Below are positions 3,312 through 63,129 of a stretch of 64,000 nt of DNA, piece by piece. Each line of letters opens with the position of its first letter. Position 1 is the stretch's first letter. This DNA is from Ktedonobacteraceae bacterium. GTDB taxonomy: Bacteria > Chloroflexota > Ktedonobacteria > Ktedonobacterales > Ktedonobacteraceae. The stretch spans positions 23,624 through 87,623 of the forward strand of contig DASRHT010000056.1 in assembly GCA_035650355.1 (NCBI GenBank), written 5' to 3'. The position numbers and the translations under genes are program-made. The notes under the pieces were generated by a model that was given only the letters and a program-made list of their open reading frames with translations, searched no databases and was not told the DNA's origin.

Positions 3312-3475
3312 ATCAGTCATCATCCCTCCCAAAACCGGCACACATACCTCATTATACCTCATCCATCAGGGCGCATATGCATAACAGGGAAACATACTAT
3401 AATTGACAGCAGTTTCTTGATCATGGTGTCATGATAGAGCAGAGATAAATAAGAGCAAAGAAGGGGACAGCGACG

Positions 3476-3967
3476 ATGGAGACGGAGATAGCAGCAAATA
3501 AAGCGATTATCCGCCGATTATTTGATGAGGCGCTCAACCAGAGACATCTGGAACTGCTGGACGAGCTATTTAGCGCAGACTTTGTGGATCACTCGACCCC
3601 GCAGCAACGACCAGGACCAGAAGGCGTCAAAGATTTTTTCGTCGAAGTACATCTCCACTTTCCAGATATAAAAGTGACAATCGAAGATATGATCGCCGAA
3701 GGCAATCGAGTCGTCGTGCGTACACTATGGCACAGCACCGCCCGAAACGCCGTAGGGACCTCCCACGATGAAGCGAGGAGCTCCAGCGCGTCCGCCCAGG
3801 ATAGCAAGCCATTCATTGCAGACAGCCTGAGCGAAGCTAGCGCGTCAGCAGCGTTGGCTGCCTGGAATAGCAAGCCGTTAAACGGATCGCTGATCCAGAT
3901 CTTCCACCTGGAAAACGGGCGGATTGTGGAGGAATGGAACGAGGGGAGCGGACTGGGGGAAGCATAA
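3476..3967 (+). CDS. SnoaL-like / ester-cyclase family protein carrying an internal repeat-derived insertion
   Basis: N-terminus NKAIIRRLFDEALNQRHLELLDELFSADFVDHS and C-terminus FHLENGRIVEEWNE are ester-cyclase-like. The central ~49 aa (ARNAVGTSHDEARSS...SEASASAALAAWNSKPLNG) is encoded by repeat DNA at 3740-3886. Confidence 0.7.
   Translation: METEIAANKAIIRRLFDEALNQRHLELLDELFSADFVDHSTPQQRPGPEGVKDFFVEVHLHFPDIKVTIEDMIAEGNRVVVRTLWHSTARNAVGTSHDEARSSSASAQDSKPFIADSLSEASASAALAAWNSKPLNGSLIQIFHLENGRIVEEWNEGSGLGEA
3818..3864. repeat. GCGAAGC-core palindromic element, copy A (inside CDS)
   Basis: GCAGACAGC-CTGAGCGAAGCTAGCGCGTCAGCAGCGTT-GGCTGCCTG, flanked by direct repeats ATAGCAAGCC (3801-3810 and 3867-3876). 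Homologous copies at 53948-53993 and 54797-54844. Confidence 0.85.
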
Positions 3968-4080
3968 GCCGCTCTGTCCAAAAGGACAGCCCGTAAACTG
4001 TCCTCTCGCACAATGTGCCGGTTCCTGCTTTCGAGGTAAAGTTACCGTAGTGGAAAAGTAGAACCTCGAAAGGAAATACC

Positions 4081-8448: not shown

Positions 8449-8624
8449 GGGGCAGGGGCAAGCCCGGCCCCTACAGGGTGTGGTCAATTGGATGGCGACA
8501 GGGCAGGGGCAAGCCCGGCCCCTACAGGGTGTGGTCAAATAGGATGGCGACAGGGGCAAGCGTGGCCCCTACAGGATGTGGTCAATAGGGTGGCGACAGG
8601 GCAGGGGCAAGCCCGGCCCCTACA
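8449..8624. repeat. tandem array (about 3.5 x 52 bp) of REP family 1 units
   Basis: Unit GGGGCAGGGGCAAGCCCGGCCCCTACAGGGTGTGGTCAATTGGATGGCGACA at 8449, 8501, 8553 (46-bp variant) and 8599 (partial). Confidence 0.9.
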
Positions 8625-8711: not shown

Positions 8712-9959
8712 ATGCCGGAAAATGTGCATAGTTTTGCCAGGTGTCCGTCTGGACCGTGGAGCGTGTTGCGTAATCGCGATTACGCGTTGTTTTTCTGGGG
8801 CCAGTTGATCTCATCGGCGGGTACAGAGATGCAGGTTGTAGCTGTGGCCTGGCAGGTGTATATAGTAACGCACTCGGCGGTGGCGCTTGGCGTGATCGGC
8901 CTGATGCGGGCTATTCCGCGCCTGCTCTTCTCGCTGGTGGGCGGCGTGCTGGCCGATGTACTAGATCGGCGCAAGATGCTGATGGCGATAAACCTGACGA
9001 TGATGGGTTTTTCCGCAGTGCTTGCCTTTTGTACCAATCTCCACGTCATTAACGTGGTAATCATCTACAGCGTCATTCTGCTGAGCGCAACCGTCTCTGC
9101 CTTCGATTTCCCCACGCGTCAGGCCATCATCCCTTCGCTGGTCACGCGCGATCAGATGGCGAGCGCGCTCTCGCTCAGCGCCACCATAACGCAACTGGCA
9201 TTTATTGCCGGCCCTACTCTTGGTGGTTTCGCCATTGGCTGGCTGGGTCTGGCTGCCACTTACTGGTTTGACGTGATCTCCTATCTCGCTGTCATCGGCT
9301 CACTCTGCTTGATGGTTGTGCCGCGTGTGCCGGTGGAGAAACGGGCTCGACCAGGCTTTGGCGCGCTCTTCGATGGCATGCGCTTCTTACGTACCAGCCA
9401 GATCATCCTCTCGGTGCTGATCCTGGACTTTTGCGCCAACTTCTTTGGTGAAGCGAGCGCCATGCTGCCGGTCTATGCCCAGAATATCATGCATATTGGC
9501 CCGCAGGGGCTTGGCCTGCTGTTGGCTGCACCCGCGCTTGGTGCTGTAGCTCTTGCACCATTTACCGGCGTGTTTGCGCGTATCAAGCGTCGAGGGGTGG
9601 GGGTGATGCTAGCGCCTGTTGTCTGGGGATTGTGTATCGCGGCCTTTGGTTTCCTGCCCAATCCGCCCTGGCTCGGTGTACTTTTCCTGGCTGGCTCTGG
9701 AGCCGCGGACATGGCGAGCATAGTGCTGCGCGGCCTGATCATCCAGGCGGCCACGCCTGACGCGTATCGCGGGCGAGTTGGTGCAGTAAGCGCGATATTT
9801 GTCCTCGGCGGCCCTATGCTCGGCCAGTTTGAATCGGGCCTAATCGGCGGCCTCTTCTCCCCCACGATCTCCGTGGTCGGCGGCGGCCTTGCCTGTGTGC
9901 TTGTCTCGCTGCTGATTGCTGCCGTTGTGCCAGATCTGATCAGGGTGTCCGCTCCGTAG
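8712..9959 (+). CDS. MFS transporter
   Basis: About 415 aa with 12 hydrophobic segments. The N-terminal region (WSVLRNRDYALFFWGQLISSAGTEM) and GGVLADVLDRRKM are typical of enterobactin-exporter-like MFS. The ORF opens at 8649, but that upstream part overlaps the REP array, so ATG 8712 is preferred. Confidence 0.8.
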   Translation: MPENVHSFARCPSGPWSVLRNRDYALFFWGQLISSAGTEMQVVAVAWQVYIVTHSAVALGVIGLMRAIPRLLFSLVGGVLADVLDRRKMLMAINLTMMGFSAVLAFCTNLHVINVVIIYSVILLSATVSAFDFPTRQAIIPSLVTRDQMASALSLSATITQLAFIAGPTLGGFAIGWLGLAATYWFDVISYLAVIGSLCLMVVPRVPVEKRARPGFGALFDGMRFLRTSQIILSVLILDFCANFFGEASAMLPVYAQNIMHIGPQGLGLLLAAPALGAVALAPFTGVFARIKRRGVGVMLAPVVWGLCIAAFGFLPNPPWLGVLFLAGSGAADMASIVLRGLIIQAATPDAYRGRVGAVSAIFVLGGPMLGQFESGLIGGLFSPTISVVGGGLACVLVSLLIAAVVPDLIRVSAP

Positions 9960-11226: not shown

Positions 11227-11257
11227 GTACGCTTCCCCTTTCTGAGGAGTTTCTCAT

Positions 11258-12301
11258 ATGGCAAAAGTCCTTCCCACGCTGAGGAAGCAGCAGCATCCCC
11301 TTGCCGATAGCACCTATCAACGCCGACTACTGGACGATCTGTCGCTGCGTCCCTTTGCGGAAGCGGCGGCGAGCGCGGGCCATCGTCCGCTCAAGGCTGC
11401 CGGGATCAGCGTTTTGCAGCTCAACGTTGGGAAACGCTGTAATCAGACCTGTGCTCACTGCCATGTGGATGCCGGGCCTGAACGCAAGGAGGTGATGACG
11501 CGCGAGGTGCTGGAGGCGGCGCTGAACTTTCTGGCGCAGAGCGATATTCCAACGCTCGATATCACCGGAGGCGCGCCCGAGATGCATCCCGATTTCCGCG
11601 AGATCGTCGAACGCGCTACAGCTCTGGGGCGCCATGTGATGGACCGCTGCAATCTCTCCATTACACGCCTGCCCAATTACTCCTACCTGCCCGAATTTCT
11701 GGCTGAGCATCGCGTCGAGGTGGTCGCATCTCTCCCGTCCTACGCCGTCAAAACAACCGATACGCAGCGCGGCGAGGGGGTTTTTGAAGATTCGATTGCC
11801 GCCCTCCAGCATTTCAATCGCCTGGGCTACGGCAAAGAGGAGAGCGGCTTGATTCTCAACCTGGTGACCAATCCGGTGGGGGCTTTTCTCCCCGGCAACC
11901 AGCACTCTTTAGAACGCGACTGGAAGGCGCAGATGAAGAGGCGTTATGGTATAGAGTTTAATCACCTCTACACCATCACCAATATGCCGATCAGCCGCTT
12001 TCTGGATTTCCTGCTGCGCTCCGGCAATCTCGAAGCGTACCTAGAGAAGCTGGTGACGGCATTTAATCCCGCGACCGTTGAGGGCCTGATGTGTCGCACG
12101 ACGCTCTCTATCGGCTGGGATGGACGGCTCTATGATTGCGACTTCAATCAGATGCTCGACTTAGGGGTGGGGCCGCAGGCTCCCCAGACTATTTTTGAGG
12201 CAACGCCGGAAAGCCTGTCCCAACGGGTGATCCAGTTGGGACAGCATTGCTATGGCTGCACAGCCGGACTCGGCTCCAGTTGTGGAGGCGCGACCGTTTA
12301 G
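11258..12301 (+). CDS. arsS: radical SAM / Cys-rich domain protein, ArsS type
   Basis: 347 aa. CNQTCAHCH radical-SAM cluster motif and C-terminal Cys-rich tail HCYGCTAGLGSSCGGA, the position where some homologs carry Sec. Confidence 0.75.
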   Translation: MAKVLPTLRKQQHPLADSTYQRRLLDDLSLRPFAEAAASAGHRPLKAAGISVLQLNVGKRCNQTCAHCHVDAGPERKEVMTREVLEAALNFLAQSDIPTLDITGGAPEMHPDFREIVERATALGRHVMDRCNLSITRLPNYSYLPEFLAEHRVEVVASLPSYAVKTTDTQRGEGVFEDSIAALQHFNRLGYGKEESGLILNLVTNPVGAFLPGNQHSLERDWKAQMKRRYGIEFNHLYTITNMPISRFLDFLLRSGNLEAYLEKLVTAFNPATVEGLMCRTTLSIGWDGRLYDCDFNQMLDLGVGPQAPQTIFEATPESLSQRVIQLGQHCYGCTAGLGSSCGGATV

Positions 12302-54026: not shown

Positions 54027-54188
54027 ATGGCACAGTGTCCCGAATGCGAAGCCGAGATGAGCCTGCAAGGTCTGATGATTGGCGAGATTATCTACTGTCC
54101 CGACTGTAATGCGGAACTGGAGGTGCTGAACCTGGAACAGCCCCAGGTGGGGCTGGCTCCGCAGGTCGAAGAAGATTGGGGAGAATAA
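54027..54188 (+). CDS. lysW: alpha-aminoadipate/glutamate carrier protein LysW
   Basis: 53 aa, below the ORF-track cutoff. MAQCPECEAEM...YCPDCNAEL zinc ribbon and C-terminal EEDWGE tail. AAGGAG RBS. Confidence 0.88.
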   Translation: MAQCPECEAEMSLQGLMIGEIIYCPDCNAELEVLNLEQPQVGLAPQVEEDWGE

Positions 54189-54262: not shown

Positions 54263-55192
54263 ATGCGTTTAGCTATTCTAACATCCCGCATTCGTGTGGA
54301 AGAGAAGTTGTTGATCGAGGCCATGCGGAGGCGCGCTATCGATTTTGATGTGATCGATGATGAAGAACTGCTCTTTGATCTCGCCCGGCCTGATGAGCGC
54401 TGGCGAGCGTACGATGCTGTGCTTTGTCGCAGCGTGAGCCAGTCGCGCGGGCTGGCGGCGCTGCACATCCTGGAGCACATGGGCATTATCGTCTTTAATT
54501 CGGCGGCGGTGACTGCACGCTGTAATGACAAGTTGCTCACGACGCTGGCACTCATGCGCGCGGGCGTTCCCACTCCTCGCACGATGCTGGCATTCGATGC
54601 GCAGCGAGCCGTGCAGGGAATTGAAGAGCTGGGCTATCCGGTTGTGCTCAAGCCCGTGACAGGTTCCTGGGGGCGGCTGCTGGCGCGCATTAATGATCGC
54701 GATGCGGCTGAAGCGGTGCTTGAGCATCAGGAGACGCTTGGCTCGTACCAGCACCACATTCACTATATTCAGCAGTATATCGCCAAGCAATTCGTTGCAG
54801 ACGACCTGAGCGAAGCTAGCTGCGAGAGCGGCGTTGGTCGTCTGAATAGCAAGCTACAACGCGATATTCGCGCCTTCGTCGTGGGTGATCGTACGATCTG
54901 CGCCATCTATCGCACCAGCGAACATTGGGTTACCAATACCGCACGCGGCGCGGTTGCCAGCAATTGCCCCATCTCTGCCGAACTGGATCGCCTCTGCACG
55001 CAGGCGGCGCAGGCGGTGGGCGGCGGTATCCTGGCAATCGATGTACTGGAGGACCCGGAGCGGGGCCTGCTGGTCAACGAGATCAATGCGACGATGGAGT
55101 TTCGCAATAGCATCGCGCCAACGGGCGTCGATATCCCTGATGCGATGCTGGATTATGTGCTGAGCCATGTGCGGGAAGGAGTGGCGCTATGA
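54263..55192 (+). CDS. lysX: RimK-type ATP-grasp ligase LysX (alpha-aminoadipate--LysW ligase) with 23-codon repeat insertion
   Basis: MRLAILTSRIRVEEKLLIEA..., GYPVVLKPVTGSWGR, and RDIRAFVVGDRTICAIYR. The extra segment FVADDLSEASCESGVGRLNSKLQ is encoded by 54791-54859. Confidence 0.88.
   Translation: MRLAILTSRIRVEEKLLIEAMRRRAIDFDVIDDEELLFDLARPDERWRAYDAVLCRSVSQSRGLAALHILEHMGIIVFNSAAVTARCNDKLLTTLALMRAGVPTPRTMLAFDAQRAVQGIEELGYPVVLKPVTGSWGRLLARINDRDAAEAVLEHQETLGSYQHHIHYIQQYIAKQFVADDLSEASCESGVGRLNSKLQRDIRAFVVGDRTICAIYRTSEHWVTNTARGAVASNCPISAELDRLCTQAAQAVGGGILAIDVLEDPERGLLVNEINATMEFRNSIAPTGVDIPDAMLDYVLSHVREGVAL
54797..54844. repeat. GCGAAGC-core palindromic element, copy C (inside lysX)
   Basis: GCAGACGAC-CTGAGCGAAGCTAGCTGCGAGAGCGGCGTT-GGTCGTCTG with a perfect 9-bp stem, followed by AATAGCAAGC as in copy A. 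Confidence 0.9.
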
Positions 55193-56250
55193 GTCAATTG
55201 CGCGTCGCTATTGTCGGCGGATCGGGCTATACAGGCGGCGAGCTGATCCGCCTGCTGCTCTTCCATCCTCAGGTTGAACTGGCGCAGGTGGCATCAAGCA
55301 GCCATGCGGGGCAGTACGTCCATAGCGTCCATCCCAACCTGCGCACGCTCTGCACGCTCAGATTTTGTCATCCAGACGACCTGACGTCATGTGATACGTT
55401 GTTTCTATGTTTGCCGCATGGCGTATCCAGCCAGGATATTGAGCGTTACCGCGGCATTGCCACACGCGTGATCGATCTTTCGGCTGACTTCCGCTTGCGT
55501 TCCGCCGCGCTCTATCAACGCTGGTACGGTGCGCCCCACAACAGGCCGGACCTACTGGCAGAGGCGGTCTATGGCCTGCCCGAACTGCATCGTGAGGAAC
55601 TGCCGGACGCGACGTTTGTCAGTGGCACTGGCTGCATGGCGACCGCCGCTATTCTGGGGCTGGCTCCCCTCTATCGCAGCGGCATCGTCAACATCGCCAT
55701 CCCGCTCGTCGTAGAAGCCAAAGTCGGCTCTTCGGCTGCTGGAGCAACGCCGGGGGCTGGCAGCCATCATCCCGATAGAAGCGGGGCCGTGCGCTCATTT
55801 CAGCCAACCGGCCATCGTCACAGCGCCGAACTGATTCAGGAGCTTGGCACTATCTCCGGTGGCGAGCTTCAGCAGCCCGTCGCCTTCTCCGCCACGGCCA
55901 TTGAACTGGTGCGCGGCGTGCTGATCACGGCTCATGTCTTTGTGCGCGAAAGCCTGGATGAACGCATGCTCTGGCGCATCTATCGCGCAGCCTATCAGCG
56001 CGAACCGTTTATCCGCCTGGTCAAAGAGCGCAGTGGCATCTATCGCTATCCTGAGCCAAAGATCCTGGCGGGCAGCAATTTCTGCGATATCGGCTTTGAA
56101 TACGACGGCGAGCAGCGACGCGTGGTGGTGATGGCGGCTCTGGATAACCTGATGAAGGGCGCGGCAGGCAACGGCGTGCAGGCACTCAATAGCATGTATG
56201 GCTGGGATGAGACGCTTGGATTGAGCTTCCCTGGCCTGCATCCCATCTAA
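55189..56250 (+). CDS. lysY: [LysW]-aminoadipate-6-phosphate reductase (ArgC-like) LysY
   Basis: 353 aa. VAIVGGSGYTGGELIRLL and an ArgC-family catalytic Cys region. ATGA overlap with lysX. Confidence 0.85.
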   Translation: MSQLRVAIVGGSGYTGGELIRLLLFHPQVELAQVASSSHAGQYVHSVHPNLRTLCTLRFCHPDDLTSCDTLFLCLPHGVSSQDIERYRGIATRVIDLSADFRLRSAALYQRWYGAPHNRPDLLAEAVYGLPELHREELPDATFVSGTGCMATAAILGLAPLYRSGIVNIAIPLVVEAKVGSSAAGATPGAGSHHPDRSGAVRSFQPTGHRHSAELIQELGTISGGELQQPVAFSATAIELVRGVLITAHVFVRESLDERMLWRIYRAAYQREPFIRLVKERSGIYRYPEPKILAGSNFCDIGFEYDGEQRRVVVMAALDNLMKGAAGNGVQALNSMYGWDETLGLSFPGLHPI

Positions 56251-56262
56251 AAGGAGCAGACG

Positions 56263-57060
56263 ATGACGCTTGTTGTAAAGATTGGCGGCGGAGCTGGCAT
56301 CGCCACATCGAACATTGTACGCGAGATTGCCCGCTATAGAGCGCAAGGGCAACAGATCGTGTTGCTGCATGGCGGCTCCGACCTCACCAATACGCTCTCT
56401 GAGCAGATGGGGCATGCCGTGCGCACGATTACTTCGCCGACGGGTATGACCAGTCGCTACACCGATAGCGAGACCTTGCGCATCTTCGCGATGGCGACGG
56501 CGGGGCAGATCAACACCGAACTGGTGGCGCTTTTGCAGCAGCAGGGGGTCAACGCACTTGGCCTCGCTGGTGTGGATGGGCGCTTGCTGGTGGGACGACG
56601 CAAGGCCATTGTGCGCTCGGTAACGCCGGATGGTCGCACGCAGATCTTGCGCGATGACTATACCGGCCAGGTTGAGCAGGTCAATGGCGAACTTTTAAGG
56701 CAATTGCTCGATATGGGCTATACTCCCGTGATTGCCCCACTGGCCTTGAGCTACGAGGGCGAGCGCCTCAACGTCGATGGGGACCGCGCCGCCGCTGCCG
56801 TCGCCTCAGCCTTGCAAGCCGACGCGCTGGTAATTATGACCAACGTGCCAGGTCTGCTCGCCGATCCACACAATCCCGCCACGCTCATTCGCACCATTCC
56901 AGCACAGCAGCTTGCTGAATACATGGATTACGCCCGGGGCCGCATGCGCAAGAAATTGCTAGGAGCGCAAGAAGCCCTGCGTGGAGGCGTCCCGCACGTC
57001 TATATCGGCTGTGACTCGCTGGCGGCGGTTCTTAGTGGGGAAGGAACGGTGATTGCGTAA
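56263..57060 (+). CDS. lysZ: [LysW]-aminoadipate kinase (ArgB-like) LysZ
   Basis: 265 aa. VVKIGGGAG, VLLHGGS and the amino-acid-kinase fold pattern. Confidence 0.85.
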   Translation: MTLVVKIGGGAGIATSNIVREIARYRAQGQQIVLLHGGSDLTNTLSEQMGHAVRTITSPTGMTSRYTDSETLRIFAMATAGQINTELVALLQQQGVNALGLAGVDGRLLVGRRKAIVRSVTPDGRTQILRDDYTGQVEQVNGELLRQLLDMGYTPVIAPLALSYEGERLNVDGDRAAAAVASALQADALVIMTNVPGLLADPHNPATLIRTIPAQQLAEYMDYARGRMRKKLLGAQEALRGGVPHVYIGCDSLAAVLSGEGTVIA

Positions 57061-57064
57061 GATT

Positions 57065-57552
57065 TCGTAGGGTCCCGCTTTAGCGCGACCGGCGCGATTT
57101 ATCGCGTTCCCCACGAGAAAACACGGTTTCACCATCGAACTGATGATGCTCAGCACCGCATTTGCATTTGTCGTACAGGATGATTTTGAAGAGAAAGCGA
57201 CACGGGTGATTTTGGGAAAGCGAGCTGATTGTGGACAGAGTGGCTTGCACCGTCCTGCTTGTACGGATGAGGCCAGATGGAAAGCGAGCTGATTGTGGAC
57301 AAAATGGCTTGCACCGTCCTGCTTGTAGGCATGAGGCCAGATGGAAAGCGAGCTGATTGTGGACAAAATGGCTTGCAACAGGGATATTTTCGTGGGGACG
57401 AGCTGATTGCGAATGGAGCGGATCATAGCATGATGATTTTAATTTGGGATAACCATATTGGTAACGGTTGGGCATTGAGGGCGAGATTTGAGGGTTGCGA
57501 AGGGTGGGTAGGCGATAAATCGCGCCGGTCGCGCTAAAGCGGGACCCTACGA
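57065..57552. mobile_element. MITE-like non-autonomous element with 41-bp perfect terminal inverted repeats
   Basis: 57065-57105 (TCGTAGGGTCCCGCTTTAGCGCGACCGGCGCGATTTATCGC) is the exact reverse complement of 57512-57552. No credible ORF inside. Sits between lysZ and lysJ. Confidence 0.65.
57216..57420. repeat. 63-bp tandem repeat, about 3 copies, inside the MITE-like element
   Basis: GGAAAGCGAGCTGATTGTGGACA(A/G)A(A/G)TGGCTTGCACCGTCCTGCTTGTA..GATGAGGCCAGAT recurs at 57216, 57279 and 57342. Confidence 0.9.
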
Positions 57553-57594
57553 GGGTTACGACGAAGGTTGCGTTGATATAGAAAGGAAAGACAC

Positions 57595-60180
57595 ATGACT
57601 AACATCATAGATCTGGAGAATACCTACACCAGCGGGGTGTACAGCAAGCGCCCGGTGGCGATTGTGCGCGGGGCGAAGGCGACGCTATGGGATGATGAGG
57701 GGCGAGCGTATATTGATTGCGCGGCGGGGCATGGCGTGGCTAATATCGGGCATGGACGTTCTGAGATAGCGGCTGCGTTGTCGGCTCAAGCGCTGCGGCT
57801 GGTGACGTGCCCCGAAATTCTCTATAACGATACGCGTGCTCACTTGCTGGAACGGCTCGTCCGTCTGACGCCGGAGGGACTTGATCGGGTGTTTCTGTGC
57901 AATAGCGGGACGGAGGCGATTGAGGGGGCGCTCAAGCTCGCTCGTCTGGTGACGGGACGGACGGGGATTGTGGCGACGTTGCGCGGCTTTCATGGACGCA
58001 GCATGGGCGCGCTTTCAGCAACGTGGGAGCCGCATTATCGCGAGCCATTCGCGCCGCTGGTGCCAGGGGTGACGCATATTCGTTACAACAATCTGGCTGC
58101 GGCTGAAAATGCCATCACTGAAGAGACGGCTGCCGTACTGATCGAGCTGGTGCAGGGCGAGGGCGGTGTGCATATCGCGACGGATGACTATATTCATGGG
58201 CTGGCGAGGCTGTGTCGCGAGCGGGGCGCGCTGCTGATTGTCGATGAGGTGCAGACTGGCTTTGGGCGCACCGGTCGCCTCTTCGCCTGCAACCATTATG
58301 ATCTATCGCCTGACATCCTCTGCCTCGCCAAATCGCTGGCCGGCGGCGTACCGATGGGGGCGATCTGCCTGGGGCCGCGCGTGACCGAGAGCGGGCGCAT
58401 CAGCAAAGGCGTGCATGGCAGCACCTTTGGCGGCAATCCGCTGGCCTGCGCTGCTGCACTGGCAACGCTCGACATTATCGAGAGAGAGGCGTTGCCGCAG
58501 AGGAGCGCCGAACTGGGTGCGTATGCTCTGGAGCGGTTGCGCGCATTGCAATCGCCGCTCATTCGCGAGGTGCGTGGTTGCGGTCTGATGATCGGCATCG
58601 AACTAACGCGGCGCGTCCAACCTTATCTTGAGACATTATGTGAACGCGGCATTCTCGCGCTGCCTGCCGGTCCCAACGTCCTGCGCCTCCTGCCCCCGTT
58701 AGTGATCGAACGGGAACAGCTAGATCATGTGCTGGACGTTGTGGCGGAACTATTGCAGGAGGGGGCGCGTGTAGGGGCAGGGCTTGCCCCTGCCCAGCCC
58801 CCTGACGTTGTGGAGGAACTATTGCAGGGGGCTGCGCGTGTAGGGGCAGGGCTTGCCCCTGCCCAGCCCGTTTCCCCTATCCCAGATGCGCCCGCCCAGG
58901 GTACATGCCTGCTACCCAGCAGGGCGGGGGCAAGCCCCGCCCCTACAGAAAACAGGGAGATCGCGTTACTGCATGGGATGCTGACCATTCCGAGCTATTC
59001 CGGTCAGGAGGGGGCGCTGGCGCATTATCTGGTTGAGCAGGCGCAGCAGATGGGGTTGCATGCATATGTGGATGAGGCTGGTAATTTTGTTGCCAGCACG
59101 ACGGAAAGCCATGCAAGTGAGCAACCGTTGGTTCTGCTGGGGCATATGGATACCGTGCGGGGCCATGTTCCGATCAGGTTCGAGGATGGCAAGCTGTATG
59201 GGCGCGGCGCGGTCGATGCTAAGGGGCCGTTGGCAGCGTTTATCTGTGCGGCGGCTCGCATCGCTCATTCGGGGGCAACGCAACGGCCCGTGATTGTGAT
59301 CGGTGCGGTCGAGGAGGAGGCGGCGACGTCGCGGGGCGCGCGTGCGGTGGTGGCGCGGTATCAGCCGGTGGGCTGCGTGATTGGCGAGCCGAGTGGGAGC
59401 CAGGCTGTGACGATTGGCTACAAGGGCCGCTTGCTGGTCGAATGCCATGTGACGCGTCCGCTGGCCCACACTGCCGGTCCGCTGCCATTCAGTTGCGAGG
59501 TGGCGACGACCTTCTGGGAGCGTGTGCGTACACACGCCGACGCATGGAACCGGCGTCATGCCAGTGGTGCGGACAGTAGAGGCTTTATGGCTCTTACGCC
59601 TTCTTTACGCAACATCAATAGCGTGCAGGATGGGCTTGAAGAGCAGACGCGGCTATTGATCGGCTATCGGTTGCCGCCAAATTGCGATATAGTAGAGATA
59701 CGCACGCAGCTAAGCGATTGGGCCGATGAGCTTGACCTGCGCCTGATGTTTTCGGGGGAAGAGGCCGCGTTCCAGACGACGCGCACAACGCCACTGGCGC
59801 GGGCCTTCATCGGCGCTATTCGAGCGAGCGGCGGGCAGCCAGGCTTCAAGTATAAAACGGGTACGTCGGATATGAATGTCGTGGGTCCGGTATGGTTCCA
59901 ACATGCGCAATTTCAGTATCCTCAAACGGATCGTGCTTTGGCACCGGCTCTCACCGCTCCTGAGGGAGAGTATACTCATGAAACCTTGAGGAGTCAAGCG
60001 GAGATGCGTAGGGGACCGAACATCATTGCATATGGGCCAGGAGACTCGCGCCTGGATCACACTCCTCAGGAGCATATCGAGCTTAGCGAGTATCTCCAGG
60101 CTATCGATGTGCTTGAACATGTACTGATGGGCGTTGCAGCGCAGAGGGAGATAGGTCATGAGATCGCCAGCTATTCTTGA
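57595..60180 (+). CDS. lysJ-lysK: fusion of LysJ ([LysW]-aminoadipate semialdehyde aminotransferase, class III) and LysK ([LysW]-lysine hydrolase, M20/ArgE-like)
   Basis: 861-aa single ORF. N-terminal ~395 aa carry DEVQTGFGRTG and LAKSLAGGVPMGA. The linker LQEGARVGAGLAPAQPPDVVEELLQGAARVGAGLAPAQP...RAGASPAPT is encoded by REPs. The C-terminal part carries LLGHMDTV, GRGAVDAKGP and YGPGDSRLDHTPQEHIEL. Confidence 0.8.
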   Translation: MTNIIDLENTYTSGVYSKRPVAIVRGAKATLWDDEGRAYIDCAAGHGVANIGHGRSEIAAALSAQALRLVTCPEILYNDTRAHLLERLVRLTPEGLDRVFLCNSGTEAIEGALKLARLVTGRTGIVATLRGFHGRSMGALSATWEPHYREPFAPLVPGVTHIRYNNLAAAENAITEETAAVLIELVQGEGGVHIATDDYIHGLARLCRERGALLIVDEVQTGFGRTGRLFACNHYDLSPDILCLAKSLAGGVPMGAICLGPRVTESGRISKGVHGSTFGGNPLACAAALATLDIIEREALPQRSAELGAYALERLRALQSPLIREVRGCGLMIGIELTRRVQPYLETLCERGILALPAGPNVLRLLPPLVIEREQLDHVLDVVAELLQEGARVGAGLAPAQPPDVVEELLQGAARVGAGLAPAQPVSPIPDAPAQGTCLLPSRAGASPAPTENREIALLHGMLTIPSYSGQEGALAHYLVEQAQQMGLHAYVDEAGNFVASTTESHASEQPLVLLGHMDTVRGHVPIRFEDGKLYGRGAVDAKGPLAAFICAAARIAHSGATQRPVIVIGAVEEEAATSRGARAVVARYQPVGCVIGEPSGSQAVTIGYKGRLLVECHVTRPLAHTAGPLPFSCEVATTFWERVRTHADAWNRRHASGADSRGFMALTPSLRNINSVQDGLEEQTRLLIGYRLPPNCDIVEIRTQLSDWADELDLRLMFSGEEAAFQTTRTTPLARAFIGAIRASGGQPGFKYKTGTSDMNVVGPVWFQHAQFQYPQTDRALAPALTAPEGEYTHETLRSQAEMRRGPNIIAYGPGDSRLDHTPQEHIELSEYLQAIDVLEHVLMGVAAQREIGHEIASYS
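58735..58872. repeat. 69-bp in-frame tandem duplication (x2), each copy carrying a REP family 1 palindrome
   Basis: GACGTTGTGG(C/A)GGAACTATTGCAGG...GTAGGGGCAGGGCTTGCCCCTGCCCAGCCC at 58735 and 58804. REP cores at 58771-58795 and 58840-58864. Confidence 0.9.
58921..58946. repeat. REP family 1 copy (opposite orientation) in the lysJ-lysK linker
   Basis: AGGGCGGGGGCAAGCCCCGCCCCTAC. Confidence 0.85.
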
Positions 60181-61300
60181 TTCGACATTGCGCGAGGGGG
60201 AGCAGTTCGTGGGCGCTTACTTCACCCTTGAGCAACGCCTGAGCATCGTGCGGCTGCTGGACGCTATCGGCGTGGAGTTGATTGAGGTGCCTTCGCCGAT
60301 TGCTTCGCCGGAGACGCAGGGTGCCGTACAGGCCATTTGCAAAGCTGGTTTGCGCGCTCGCATCGTCGCGCACGTTCGCTGCATGGAGGCTGACGTGCAG
60401 GCTGCCCTGGCGACGCCCGTGTATGGGCTGAATCTCTTCTATGGCACCTCAAGCGAGCTGCGCAGCTATAGTCATGGCCGCGACATCGATCAGGTCATCG
60501 TCGCTGCGGTTCCGCTGATCTGCTCTATTCGCGCCGCCGGTCGGTACGTGCGTTTCTCGGCAGAGGATGCCTTTCGCAGCGATCTGGTAGACCTGCTAAC
60601 GGTCTTTGACGCGGTGGTGGAGGCAGGCGTGCAGCGGATCGGGCTGCCGGATACTGTCGGCATCGCGACTCCTCGTCAGGTGGAGCACCTCGTGCGCCTC
60701 TGCGCTGAACGCTATCCCAACGTCGGCATTGAGTTTCATGGGCATAACGATACCGGTTGTGCGATTGCTAACACCGTCGCGGCGCTGGAGAGTGGCGCGG
60801 ATTGCCTTGACGTGACCGTGCTAGGCATTGGTGAGCGCAACGGCATCGCCTCGCTTAGCGGCCTGGTGGCGCAACTCTATTCGCACCATCCCGAACTACT
60901 GGCAGCGTACGACCTGACCCGTCTCGTCGAGCTTGATCAGTACGTGGCGCGGTGCCTCAATCTGACCATTCCCTTTAATATCCCGATCACCGCTCCAGGC
61001 GCTTTTACGCATAGAGCAGGTGTGCATACCAGAGCCATCCTGCAAAATCCGCGCGCGTACGAGGCGCTCGATCCGGGCGATTTTGGCCTGGAGCGGCAGA
61101 TCGATATCGGCTCTCGTTTCACCGGACGCCACGCCGTCGCCCATCGCGCGGCCATCCTGGGGTTCAGATTGAGCAACGAGGAAATCGCCAATCTCACCAG
61201 CGCGCTCAAGGCCAGAGCCGAGCGGGGCGCGCTCAACCTGGAAGAGGTCGATGCTTTTATGCGAGAGTGGCATGCATCCATTCATGCCGTAATTCCGTAG
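60158..61300 (+). CDS. hcs: homocitrate synthase (LeuA/HCS family, no LeuA regulatory domain)
   Basis: 380 aa. ILDSTLREGEQ, HGHNDTGCAIAN, and context with lysW-Z. Overlaps the lysJ-lysK end by 23 nt. Confidence 0.8.
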   Translation: MRSPAILDSTLREGEQFVGAYFTLEQRLSIVRLLDAIGVELIEVPSPIASPETQGAVQAICKAGLRARIVAHVRCMEADVQAALATPVYGLNLFYGTSSELRSYSHGRDIDQVIVAAVPLICSIRAAGRYVRFSAEDAFRSDLVDLLTVFDAVVEAGVQRIGLPDTVGIATPRQVEHLVRLCAERYPNVGIEFHGHNDTGCAIANTVAALESGADCLDVTVLGIGERNGIASLSGLVAQLYSHHPELLAAYDLTRLVELDQYVARCLNLTIPFNIPITAPGAFTHRAGVHTRAILQNPRAYEALDPGDFGLERQIDIGSRFTGRHAVAHRAAILGFRLSNEEIANLTSALKARAERGALNLEEVDAFMREWHASIHAVIP

Positions 61301-61365: not shown

Positions 61366-62616
61366 ATGGGAACGCTAACGGAAGAGATTTTTAGTTACAA
61401 GCTGGGTCGCGCGGTTCACGAGGGGGAGACGGTGGTGGTGGATGTCGATCATGTGATGAGCCATGATACTTCGACGCCACTGGCAATCAAGGCTTTTCGC
61501 GAACTGACGCGGCACACTAACGGGCGCGTCTTCGCTGCCGACCGCTCGCATATCGTGTTCGATCATATTATTCCCGCCGCTACCATCGCCGCTGCGACCC
61601 TGCATCGCGATATTCGCGGTTTTGCGAGCGAGCAGGGGATAGCGGTCTTGCAAGAGGGCATCTGTCACCAGGTCATGCCGGAGCGCGGCTTTGTGATCCC
61701 CGGCTCGATCATCGTTGGCGGCGACAGTCATACCTGCACCTATGGCGCGCTGGGAGCCTTCGCCACCGGCATGGGTTCGACCGATATAGCCGTGGCCTAT
61801 GCCACCGGACGCACCTGGTTTCGCGTCCCCTCCACGATCAATGTGCATCTCACCGGGACGCTGCCCTTCGGCGTCTATGCCAAAGATATGACCCTGGAGA
61901 TCGTGCGCCAGGTCGGCGTGGACGGAGCTAATTATCGCGCCATCGAGTACACGGGGGAAGTTGTTGAGCGCATGTCCGTGAGCGAACGCTTCACCTTCTG
62001 CAATATGGCGATTGAGATGGGCGGAAAGGCTGGCCTGATTGCGCCCGATGCGATTACGCAGGAATGGCTCAAGGGGCGAACTGAGCGCGAATATCCCATG
62101 CTGGCCGCGCATAACCCGCAATACGAGCGCGTCATAGAGATCGATGTGTCGAAGCTGCCGCCGCTCATCGCCTGTCCGCCTGATGTCAATAATGTCGCGG
62201 CGGTAACAGAGGTCGAAGATGTCAAAATCGATCAGGTCTTTCTTGGCACCTGCACCAATGGGCGGCTTGATGATCTGGCTATCGCTGCCAAGCTGCTGCA
62301 AGGGCGGACGATTCATCCGAGCTTGCGCATGGTGGTGATTCCGGCTTCGCGCGAGGTGTATCTGGAGGCGATGAGGCTTGGCTACCTGGAAACATTCGTC
62401 CAGGCGGGTGCGTCCGTGGGGACGCCTGGCTGCGGTCCCTGCATTGGTCGGCATATGGGCGTGCTGGCCCCAGGAGAGCGCGCGCTCACGACGATGAACC
62501 GCAACTTCACCGGACGCATGGGCGACCCGACGGCTGAAATCTATCTCGGTAGCCCCGCCACAGTTGCCGCGACCGCGCTGACCGGTCATATCACCGACCC
62601 GCGCACGTTTCTTTAG
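61366..62616 (+). CDS. hacA: homoaconitase / 3-isopropylmalate dehydratase large subunit
   Basis: 416 aa. VGGDSHTCTYGALGAF, and GTCTNGR plus GCGPCIG Fe-S ligand motifs. Confidence 0.88.
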   Translation: MGTLTEEIFSYKLGRAVHEGETVVVDVDHVMSHDTSTPLAIKAFRELTRHTNGRVFAADRSHIVFDHIIPAATIAAATLHRDIRGFASEQGIAVLQEGICHQVMPERGFVIPGSIIVGGDSHTCTYGALGAFATGMGSTDIAVAYATGRTWFRVPSTINVHLTGTLPFGVYAKDMTLEIVRQVGVDGANYRAIEYTGEVVERMSVSERFTFCNMAIEMGGKAGLIAPDAITQEWLKGRTEREYPMLAAHNPQYERVIEIDVSKLPPLIACPPDVNNVAAVTEVEDVKIDQVFLGTCTNGRLDDLAIAAKLLQGRTIHPSLRMVVIPASREVYLEAMRLGYLETFVQAGASVGTPGCGPCIGRHMGVLAPGERALTTMNRNFTGRMGDPTAEIYLGSPATVAATALTGHITDPRTFL

Positions 62617-62637: not shown

Positions 62638-63129
62638 ATGAGCCGTATCTGGATGCTTGGCGATAATGTCAATACCGATGTGATCATTCCTGGGCGCTAT
62701 AATATCACGACCGACCGGACGGAACTGGCGCGTCATTGTCTCTGCGAAGTCCTGCCACAGTTCCCGCAGCAGGTGCAGGCGGGCGATGTGATTATGGCGG
62801 GGCATAATTTCGGCTGCGGGTCGTCGCGCGAGCATGCTCCGATTGCGATTGCGGGCTGTGGCGTACAGGTAGTCATCGCACGCAGCTTTGCCCGCATTTT
62901 CTATCGCAACGCCGTCAATATCGGCCTGCCCGTGCTGATCTGCGAGGATGCTGTGCTGGCAAGCTCGGATGGCGACGAGATCAGCGTCGATCTGGAGACG
63001 GGCGTCATTCGCAACCTGACAACGGAGCGCAGCTTCCAGGCAGAGCCGCTCAATCCCTTTGTGGCGCGCATTGTGGCTGCGGGCGGGATTATCAATTATG
63101 TCATTGCACAGGGAGGAACGTTGCAATGA
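62638..63129 (+). CDS. hacB: homoaconitase / 3-isopropylmalate dehydratase small subunit
   Basis: 163 aa. LGDNVNTDVIIPGRY and NFGCGSSREHAP. Confidence 0.88.
   Translation: MSRIWMLGDNVNTDVIIPGRYNITTDRTELARHCLCEVLPQFPQQVQAGDVIMAGHNFGCGSSREHAPIAIAGCGVQVVIARSFARIFYRNAVNIGLPVLICEDAVLASSDGDEISVDLETGVIRNLTTERSFQAEPLNPFVARIVAAGGIINYVIAQGGTLQ

Follow-up and report, generated by a model that had tools for sequence, protein, structure and literature searches.

Palindromic repeats translated in frame in the interdomain linker of a LysJ-LysK fusion shared across Ktedonobacterales

In a 64,000-nucleotide stretch of DNA from a Ktedonobacteraceae bacterium of the phylum Chloroflexota (assembly GCA_035650355.1, contig DASRHT010000056.1, positions 23,624 to 87,623 of the forward strand), the whole of which is referred to here as the window, a single open reading frame (ORF) joins a LysJ-type aminotransferase to a LysK-type [LysW]-lysine hydrolase. 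The stretch of this gene, lysJK, that connects the two domains consists largely of translated copies of a short palindrome of the repetitive extragenic palindromic (REP) type and of a 69-bp tandem duplication. The locus thereby raises the question of whether these repeats created the fusion, as the first-pass annotation of the window had proposed, or entered the linker of a gene that was fused already. Comparison with homologues favors the second answer: we read lysJK as a conserved and otherwise unremarkable bifunctional enzyme, with selfish palindromic DNA tolerated in its disordered linker, and place the probability of this reading at roughly 0.8. The gene and its two domains are delimited as follows:

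57595..60180, + strand: lysJK, a single ORF of 861 amino acids (aa), LysJ-type aminotransferase joined to LysK-type [LysW]-lysine hydrolase (ORF list, Pfam, NCBIfam, PDB matches, homologues)
57595..58764, + strand: LysJ domain, approximately residues 1-390 (match to 1vef, AlphaFold2 (AF2) secondary structure, invariant K246 and D217)
58948..60177, + strand: LysK (M20) domain, approximately residues 452-861 (matches to 4q7a and 5xoy, PRK04443 score, AF2 model, invariant metal/catalytic residues)

The 861-aa product contains the Pfam domains Aminotran_3 at residues 20-385 (E 2.8e-110) and Peptidase_M20 at residues 514-845. Among solved structures, Thermus LysJ (1vef) aligns with residues 4-386 at 413 bits, and the LysK-type deacetylase/hydrolases 5xoy and 4q7a align with residues 456-767 and 452-767, respectively. 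The ORF and these matches bear out the single open frame described in the first-pass annotation and the limits given there, with LysJ ending in LDHVLDVVAELLQEG (residues 376-390, nucleotides 58720-58764) and LysK starting with EIALL... at residue 454. The LysJ domain matches the class-III aminotransferase fold over its full length and has the lysine that binds pyridoxal phosphate (PLP); in an alignment of 92 homologues this lysine, K246, and D217 are invariant. In the LysK domain, the same alignment shows invariant columns at H517, D519, D541, E574, E575, E598 and H822, which we take to be the metal-binding and catalytic residues by analogy with other M20 enzymes.

A search of a large protein collection recovered the fused form in all 120 of the best homologues, which are 764-883 aa long, share 64-85% identity with the lysJK product, and belong to Ktedonosporobacter, Dictyobacter, Reticulibacter and many Ktedonobacteraceae metagenome bins; the fusion is common to at least several families of the order Ktedonobacterales. 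The close relatives P0002 and P0003, as well as many distant homologues, P0022 and P0052 among them, are fused by way of short REP-free linkers, and the nearest relative of the window, P0001, is fused and carries REPs but lacks the duplication, which argues that the repeats came into a linker that was already there. By this comparison the fusion predates the repeats of this genome. The opposite proposal, that the fusion took place in this genome when REP insertion and/or the 69-bp duplication removed a stop codon and bridged the frames of separate lysJ and lysK genes, could appeal to a linker that here is mostly REPs and duplication, and to the TAG within the GTAGGG head of the repeat, which is a stop codon elsewhere in the window, so that a frame change at a REP could remove a stop. 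The fused relatives just described contradict it, as does an older linker remnant (VSPIPDAP...) that persists between the REPs, and we regard it as the least probable of the explanations weighed here. The comparison of the junction in related strains, which the first-pass annotation had itself suggested, thus turned against the origin that it favored.

Beyond these best homologues, an exhaustive search of 1.8 billion representatives yielded one full-length fused cluster at the 50%-identity level (P0121); the other matches of 650-990 aa align to the query via one domain only, and the remainder are mostly ~400-aa aminotransferases or ~370-390-aa LysK-like proteins. Among the matches listed from species genomes, lysJ and lysK are neighboring yet separate ORFs in Anaerolineae, Chloroflexia, Acidobacteria and several archaea. 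Candidate fusions in Anaerolineae, Acidobacteria and archaea, in which query residues 1-850 were matched, were rejected on inspection of their frames, each of which resolves into two adjacent ORFs. The genome of the window itself was neither among these listed genome matches nor among the 120 protein homologues. The search of representatives also returned proteins of other architectures (P0136, P0140, P0173, P0193, P0205 and P0233), including a group of 650-720 aa with a C-terminal LysJ/ArgD-like domain and a protein of 704 aa whose LysK-like domain occupies residues 331-661; further fusions exist in the LysJ/LysK pathway family.

The database entries already hold the lysJK-type fusion under automatic names. 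Some fused homologues are labeled "Multifunctional fusion protein" in UniRef, and NCBI entries named "[LysW]-lysine hydrolase" (Ktedonosporobacter rubrisoli, Dictyobacter formicarum, Reticulibacter mediterranei) have the same two-domain architecture at the identity levels given above, whereas their linkers differ from that of the window and the 69-bp duplication occurs in none of those examined. A search of the available literature library found no paper on a LysJ-LysK fusion, on its linker or on Ktedonobacterial REPs.

The junction itself is composed of the following elements:

58735..58803, + strand: first copy of the 69-bp duplication, DVVAELLQEGARVGAGLAPAQPP, the true LysJ helix end with one REP (Tandem Repeats Finder, repeat search)
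58771..58795, + strand: REP family-1 copy 1, read VGAGLAPA (pattern search, 0 mismatches)
58804..58872, + strand: second copy of the 69-bp duplication, DVVEELLQGAARVGAGLAPAQPV, absent in every relative examined (Tandem Repeats Finder, codon alignment with L001, L005, L006 and L007)
58840..58864, + strand: REP family-1 copy 2, a product of the duplication (pattern search, 0 mismatches)
58870..58920, + strand: pre-REP linker remnant, VSPIPDAPAQGTCLLPS, homologous to AVSPAHVGPAPDAYLQPP of P0004 and AVSPAHVSPTQD of P0003 (DNA and codon alignment)
58922..58946, - strand: REP family-1 third copy, read AGASPAPT, common to P0001 and P0004 and the oldest of the three (pattern search and linker alignment)

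The family-1 unit is a self-complementary 25-nucleotide palindrome, GTAGGGGCAGGGCTTGCCCCTGCCC, which lies at 58771(+), 58840(+) and 58922(-) within lysJK and is present in 9-10 copies in the 64-kb window as a whole against 0.00 expected from 100 shuffles. As the first-pass annotation had read them, the copies contribute ARVGAGLAPAQP at residues 391-402 and 414-425, and RAGASPAPT at residues 443-451, and the GTAGGG head is read as GTA-GGG in the lysJK frame. Five of the six reading frames of the unit are open, the closed one being that which reads TAG, and the frames in use give Ala/Gly/Pro-rich peptides. The in-frame duplication of the LysJ 3' end was likewise recovered: Tandem Repeats Finder reports a unit of 69 bp in 2.0 copies at 58735-58869, with 93% matches, 0 indels and a score of 242. 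As 69 bp correspond to 23 codons, the reading frame is preserved; the copies are identical at 62 of 66 positions (94%), leaving four differences.

The other family-1 copies in the window fall outside Pfam-supported genes, whereas those at 58771, 58840 and 58922 are located within lysJK and are not extragenic. The TAG within GTAGGG does serve as the stop codon of long frames elsewhere in the window, as the first-pass annotation had claimed, but of four rather than five: it ends frames of 456, 329, 380 and 381 codons, the genes for a major facilitator superfamily (MFS) transporter and for homocitrate synthase included, at 9956, 26264(-), 46034 and 61297, where REPs abut or supply the gene ends. 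A further cluster of four family-1 REPs, all on the minus strand and ~50 bp apart, occupies 8450-8623, directly upstream of the MFS transporter gene.

To trace the history of the junction, the linker DNA of the window was aligned by codon with that of its four closest relatives, P0001 (L001), P0002 (L007), P0003 (L006) and P0004 (L005). P0002 and P0003 have short linkers, AVAPALHALILQSTITAHTENRE and AVSPAHVSPTQDSPAATDNRE, without an intact palindrome. The minus-strand REP is present in the window, L001 and L005, with about half of it surviving in L006; in P0004 it follows the segment homologous to the remnant of the window. The plus-strand REP, by comparison, is seen in the window and L001 only. 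L001, which is 91.2% identical to the window at the nucleotide level and 83.2% at third codon positions, has a single plus-strand REP, in which GTAGGG has become GTCGGG, and the minus-strand REP, and shows no 69-bp duplication. In the window the order is two plus-strand REPs (via the duplication), the old segment and the minus-strand REP. The differences in linker length between the window and these relatives are all multiples of three.

From the distribution of these elements, the simplest order of events would be fusion, minus-strand REP, plus-strand REP and, finally, the 69-bp duplication. Adjacent lysJ and lysK genes would have been joined into one frame once, in an ancestor of the Ktedonobacterales. 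In the lineage of the window the minus-strand REP would have been inserted into the linker first, and the plus-strand REP next, at the very end of the C-terminal helix of LysJ. The tandem duplication of 23 codons would have come last, copying the end of the helix together with the plus-strand REP, probably through slippage or template switching at the hairpin, with a linker of ~60 aa as the outcome. The two 69-bp copies are less diverged from each other than the window is from L001 at third codon positions, which fits a duplication after these two lineages split.

The same data bear on the possibility that a sequencing or assembly artefact conceals a frameshift or stop codon, so that the locus really consists of two genes or of one 69-bp copy. 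Such an error is conceivable in that GC-rich hairpins and short tandem repeats often give rise to errors, and the junction of the duplication has no match in any other assembly. The relative in Ktedonospora formicarum (L012), in which the LysJ C-terminus is linked to LysK via a linker, does show a frameshift, although within the lysJ domain: at ~3800-3990 its lysJ frame shifts after ...STFGGNP, giving two overlapping ORFs, which reflects either a sequencing error or a pseudogene. However, the frame in the window is the one expected from every homologue, and length differences from the relatives that are throughout multiples of three are not what such an error would be expected to leave. The four differences between the 69-bp copies argue against an assembly artefact, as copies produced by collapse or expansion would not be expected to differ. 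The protein P0001, REPs included, is encoded identically on 19 independent contigs, so that a REP-bearing linker is not a one-off assembly error. An artefact thus appears very unlikely. In the metagenome contig collection the exact junction of the duplication found no match, and a looser pattern around the minus-strand REP matched just L090, a P0001-type locus.

Why the repeats should have accumulated at this point is suggested by the structure and variation of the linker. In the AF2 model (92 fused homologues), residues 396-450 have a predicted local distance difference test (pLDDT) score <50 and no secondary structure, and lie between two confident domains; the C-terminal helix of LysJ spans residues 373-396 and the first LysK helix residues 454-464. 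The conserved PPLVI motif and the conserved LysK methionine are separated by 40 to 132 aa in 104 homologues (median 58.5) and by 91 aa in the window. The frame is maintained over linkers of such widely varied length, which speaks for LysK being dependent on translation from LysJ. The linker is the main site of in-frame insertion, with inserts of at least 8 aa in 28 and 35 sequences at two linker positions, as against about ten sites within the domains, each with inserts of at least 8 aa in 1-3 sequences.

Peptides of the REP type are found in 38 of the 104 linkers. Of the 15 longest linkers 14 have such a peptide, the 32 shortest have none, and all of the domain sequence gives a single match; this enrichment is inflated because the motifs were set after the linkers had been viewed. 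At the DNA level, the hexamer GTAGGG/CCCTAC occurs 11.4 times per kb in the linkers versus 0.24 times per kb in domain-coding DNA of nine genes, a contrast likewise inflated since four of the nine loci had been picked for their repeat-like linkers. The direction of the enrichment is nevertheless clear.

Different lineages have captured different REP families in their linkers. The peptides VGTRFIAS and DAINRVPT arise by translation of opposite strands of GTAGGGACCCGATTTATCGCGTCC, the second REP family of the window; in L089 (P0008), units of this family are present both in the linker and in the hacA-hacB spacer of the same contig. L088 (P0033) has a tandem duplication of its own in the linker, of ~93 bp at 11241-11414 (81 nucleotides aligned, 89% identity), each copy of which holds two different REPs; its protein also shows GDHKA and other inserts within both domains. 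In L091 (P0060) the peptide GRPQGSPL is encoded by GGGCGACCGCAAGGGTCGCCCCTAC, a GTAGGG-type palindrome that is found in the linker of another lineage too. DNA of the GRPQGSP type had no second copy in its own contig flanks of 16-22 kb.

Taken together, these patterns are consistent with a mechanism in which the linker is free of sequence constraint beyond staying in frame, so that its coding DNA would act as intergenic DNA for small GTAGGG-headed REPs. REPs that land in it would be tolerated when the frame is kept, because all but one of their six frames are open and encode peptides rich in Ala, Gly and Pro. The repeats would then be tolerated passengers and neutral.

Several points weigh against this interpretation in addition to the inflation of the two enrichment figures noted above. 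The existence of a single polypeptide in vivo is deduced from the conservation of the frame alone. The 69-bp duplication is known from this window alone, without a second assembly carrying its junction. A motif of the GDHKG type had no second copy in its own 22-kb flanks, which leaves it a candidate repeat. The linker RNA folds somewhat more stably than shuffled sequence, at -135.7 kcal/mol of minimum free energy (z = -2.5). Finally, M462 is nearly invariant and has AGGGAG 18 nucleotides upstream, so that some internal initiation is possible.

The last two of these points favor the idea that the linker repeats are functional. In this case mRNA hairpins and pairing over 29 nucleotides would slow ribosomes, tune the output of LysK, mark processing or aid internal initiation, partly uncoupling the levels of LysJ and LysK, or else linker length would be selected for the hand-off of LysW. 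The idea gains further from the capacity of the plus- and minus-strand REP copies to pair over 29-nucleotide arms that are 90% complementary, and from the recurrence of REPs in the lysJK linker of several lineages. Against it, about a third of the homologues manage with short repeat-free linkers, as the 32 without any motif illustrate, and the families, positions and orientations of the REPs vary by lineage, as neutral accretion predicts. No promoter-like or terminator-like site was found in 58500-59200, and no known RNA family in the linker. As to internal initiation, AGGGAG is the sole Shine-Dalgarno-like motif and its distance from the ATG is too great for a typical ribosome-binding site; a start at M462 would, moreover, cut the conserved first helix of LysK. 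We consider a function for the repeats unlikely on balance. A broader proposition, also doubtful but given slightly more weight, is that linker length across the order is set mainly by repeated independent capture of REPs together with local duplication, and that the hairpins or the length itself are perhaps used by the cell, as an interdomain pause in translation or in tuning the hand-off of LysW from LysJ to LysK. If this were true, a single enzyme would be available across the order in a natural series of variants, with linker cores ranging from ~15 to ~105 aa.

Under the favored reading, that of a conserved enzyme with a tolerant linker, the closest precedent for the in-frame REPs of lysJK is provided by the Rickettsia palindromic elements (RPEs), which are in-frame insertions within protein-coding genes (PMC10969869, summarising Ogata et al. 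2000, 2002). In both cases multi-copy short palindromes lie inside ORFs and are translated in frame where the fold tolerates them, and the host protein is conserved and presumably functional; in lysJK the repeats are in frame in a conserved gene, leave both domains intact and fall within predicted disorder. The analogy concerns the kind of event and not the family of element. RPEs are ~150 bp long and have a conserved peptide of their own, whereas the REP units of lysJK measure ~25-30 bp, or 8-10 residues, which is well short of a module of 100-150 bp. RPEs are also scattered over many unrelated genes in reduced intracellular genomes, in contrast to the lysJK REPs, which accumulate in a single interdomain linker in many lineages, here in a free-living member of the Chloroflexota with a large genome.

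The classical REPs of Enterobacteria and Pseudomonas, together with the bacterial interspersed mosaic elements (BIMEs) that they form, are GTAG-headed imperfect palindromes that are extragenic and are mobilized by RAYT transposases. The repeats of the window resemble them in their GTAG(GG) head and GC-rich imperfect palindrome, in their many copies, which are mostly intergenic and often at stop codons, and in forming clusters in alternating orientation. They differ in that classical REPs are extragenic by definition, whereas three of the copies in the window are translated.

The fusion protein contains a second in-frame insertion outside the linker, in the M20 domain:

59896..60012, + strand: 39-aa in-frame insertion in the M20 domain, FQHAQFQYPQT...EMRR, FQHAQFQYPQTDRALAPALTAPEGEYTHETLRSQAEMRR (alignments)

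This insertion directly precedes the conserved NI(V/I)AYGPGD motif and is common to P0001 only, with P0020 retaining just its ends (FQYPQTEMHR); residues 754-807, which span it, have pLDDT <50 in the AF2 model. It was considered as a repeat element and rejected, since neither another copy in the window nor an inverted repeat was found. A separate observation concerns a SnoaL-like ORF at 3449-3964 (+), which has an in-frame insert of ~40 aa at ~3745-3870 that begins at a GTAGGGACC repeat head and contains the peptide FIADSLSEAS. Peptides of this type also make up two insertions of 22 aa each within LysK in P0001 (FLADDLSEAS... and FFAESLSEAS...) and one near the C-terminus of P0002, which suggests that they represent a further repeat family entering coding sequence in frame.

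The identity of the two enzymes is indicated by family models and gene context. For the aminotransferase the top NCBIfam model is LysJ_Th_th, whose 468 bits are below its equivalog cut-off of 700, and the argD subfamily model TIGR00707 is passed (424.1 versus a cut-off of 410.05), so that the assignment as LysJ relies on the best match and the gene context. For the hydrolase, the [LysW]-lysine hydrolase model NF003367 (PRK04443) scores 366.5 bits, just over its curated cut-off of 363, with the match split into two stretches because of the 39-aa insertion. The context is that of a lysW-lysX-lysY-lysZ cluster, in which lysJK is surrounded by the following Pfam-supported genes:

54027-54188, + strand: lysW, upstream of lysJK
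54263-55192, + strand: lysX, upstream of lysJK
55189-56250, + strand: lysY, upstream of lysJK
56263-57060, + strand: lysZ, upstream of lysJK
60158-61300, + strand: homocitrate synthase, downstream of lysJK
61366-62616, + strand: homoaconitase large subunit, downstream of lysJK
62638-63129, + strand: homoaconitase small subunit, downstream of lysJK

The gene cluster is that of the LysW-dependent aminoadipate pathway of lysine biosynthesis, and its upstream order of lysW, lysX, lysY and lysZ is common to the relatives as well. Both domains match the separate LysJ (1vef) and LysK (5xoy) of Thermus thermophilus over their full length, and the cluster lysW-X-Y-Z-J-K, accompanied by genes for homocitrate and homoaconitate, represents the same pathway; Thermus, the Chloroflexota outside the Ktedonobacterales and the archaea have two proteins, however, where here there is one chain with a disordered linker of ~60 aa. 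The product of lysJK is most likely a bifunctional enzyme, as the first-pass annotation had also supposed: one chain of ~92 kDa that would carry out the last two LysW-tethered steps, in which LysW-aminoadipate semialdehyde is transaminated and lysine is then set free from LysW.

The start codon of the homocitrate synthase gene is located 23 nucleotides inside the 3' end of lysJK (60158-60180) and is preceded by GAGGGAG, an overlap that the relatives share and that suggests translational coupling. On the other side of lysJK, the 534-bp spacer that separates it from lysZ (57061-57594) contains a 64-bp tandem repeat of 2.5 copies at 57215-57377 (95% matches), flanked by inverted family-2 REPs at 57067(+) and 57545-57550(-). 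In relatives, a 73-aa ORF without a Pfam match has been called in this spacer.

The findings on lysJK do not overturn current understanding, but they have consequences for annotation and for the study of protein evolution. The locus should be annotated as one gene, neither a pseudogene nor a misassembly, and deserves the name bifunctional LysJ/LysK, as current public names cover one half of the fusion only. It offers a dated case of selfish palindromic DNA taken into an interdomain linker, where the fold is indifferent, and the recurrence of such events across related lineages lets repeat insertion, decay and duplication be traced stepwise. That the last two carrier-protein-dependent steps are fused throughout the clade suggests an advantage in coupling them, and the natural range of linker lengths supplies ready variants with which this advantage could be tested.

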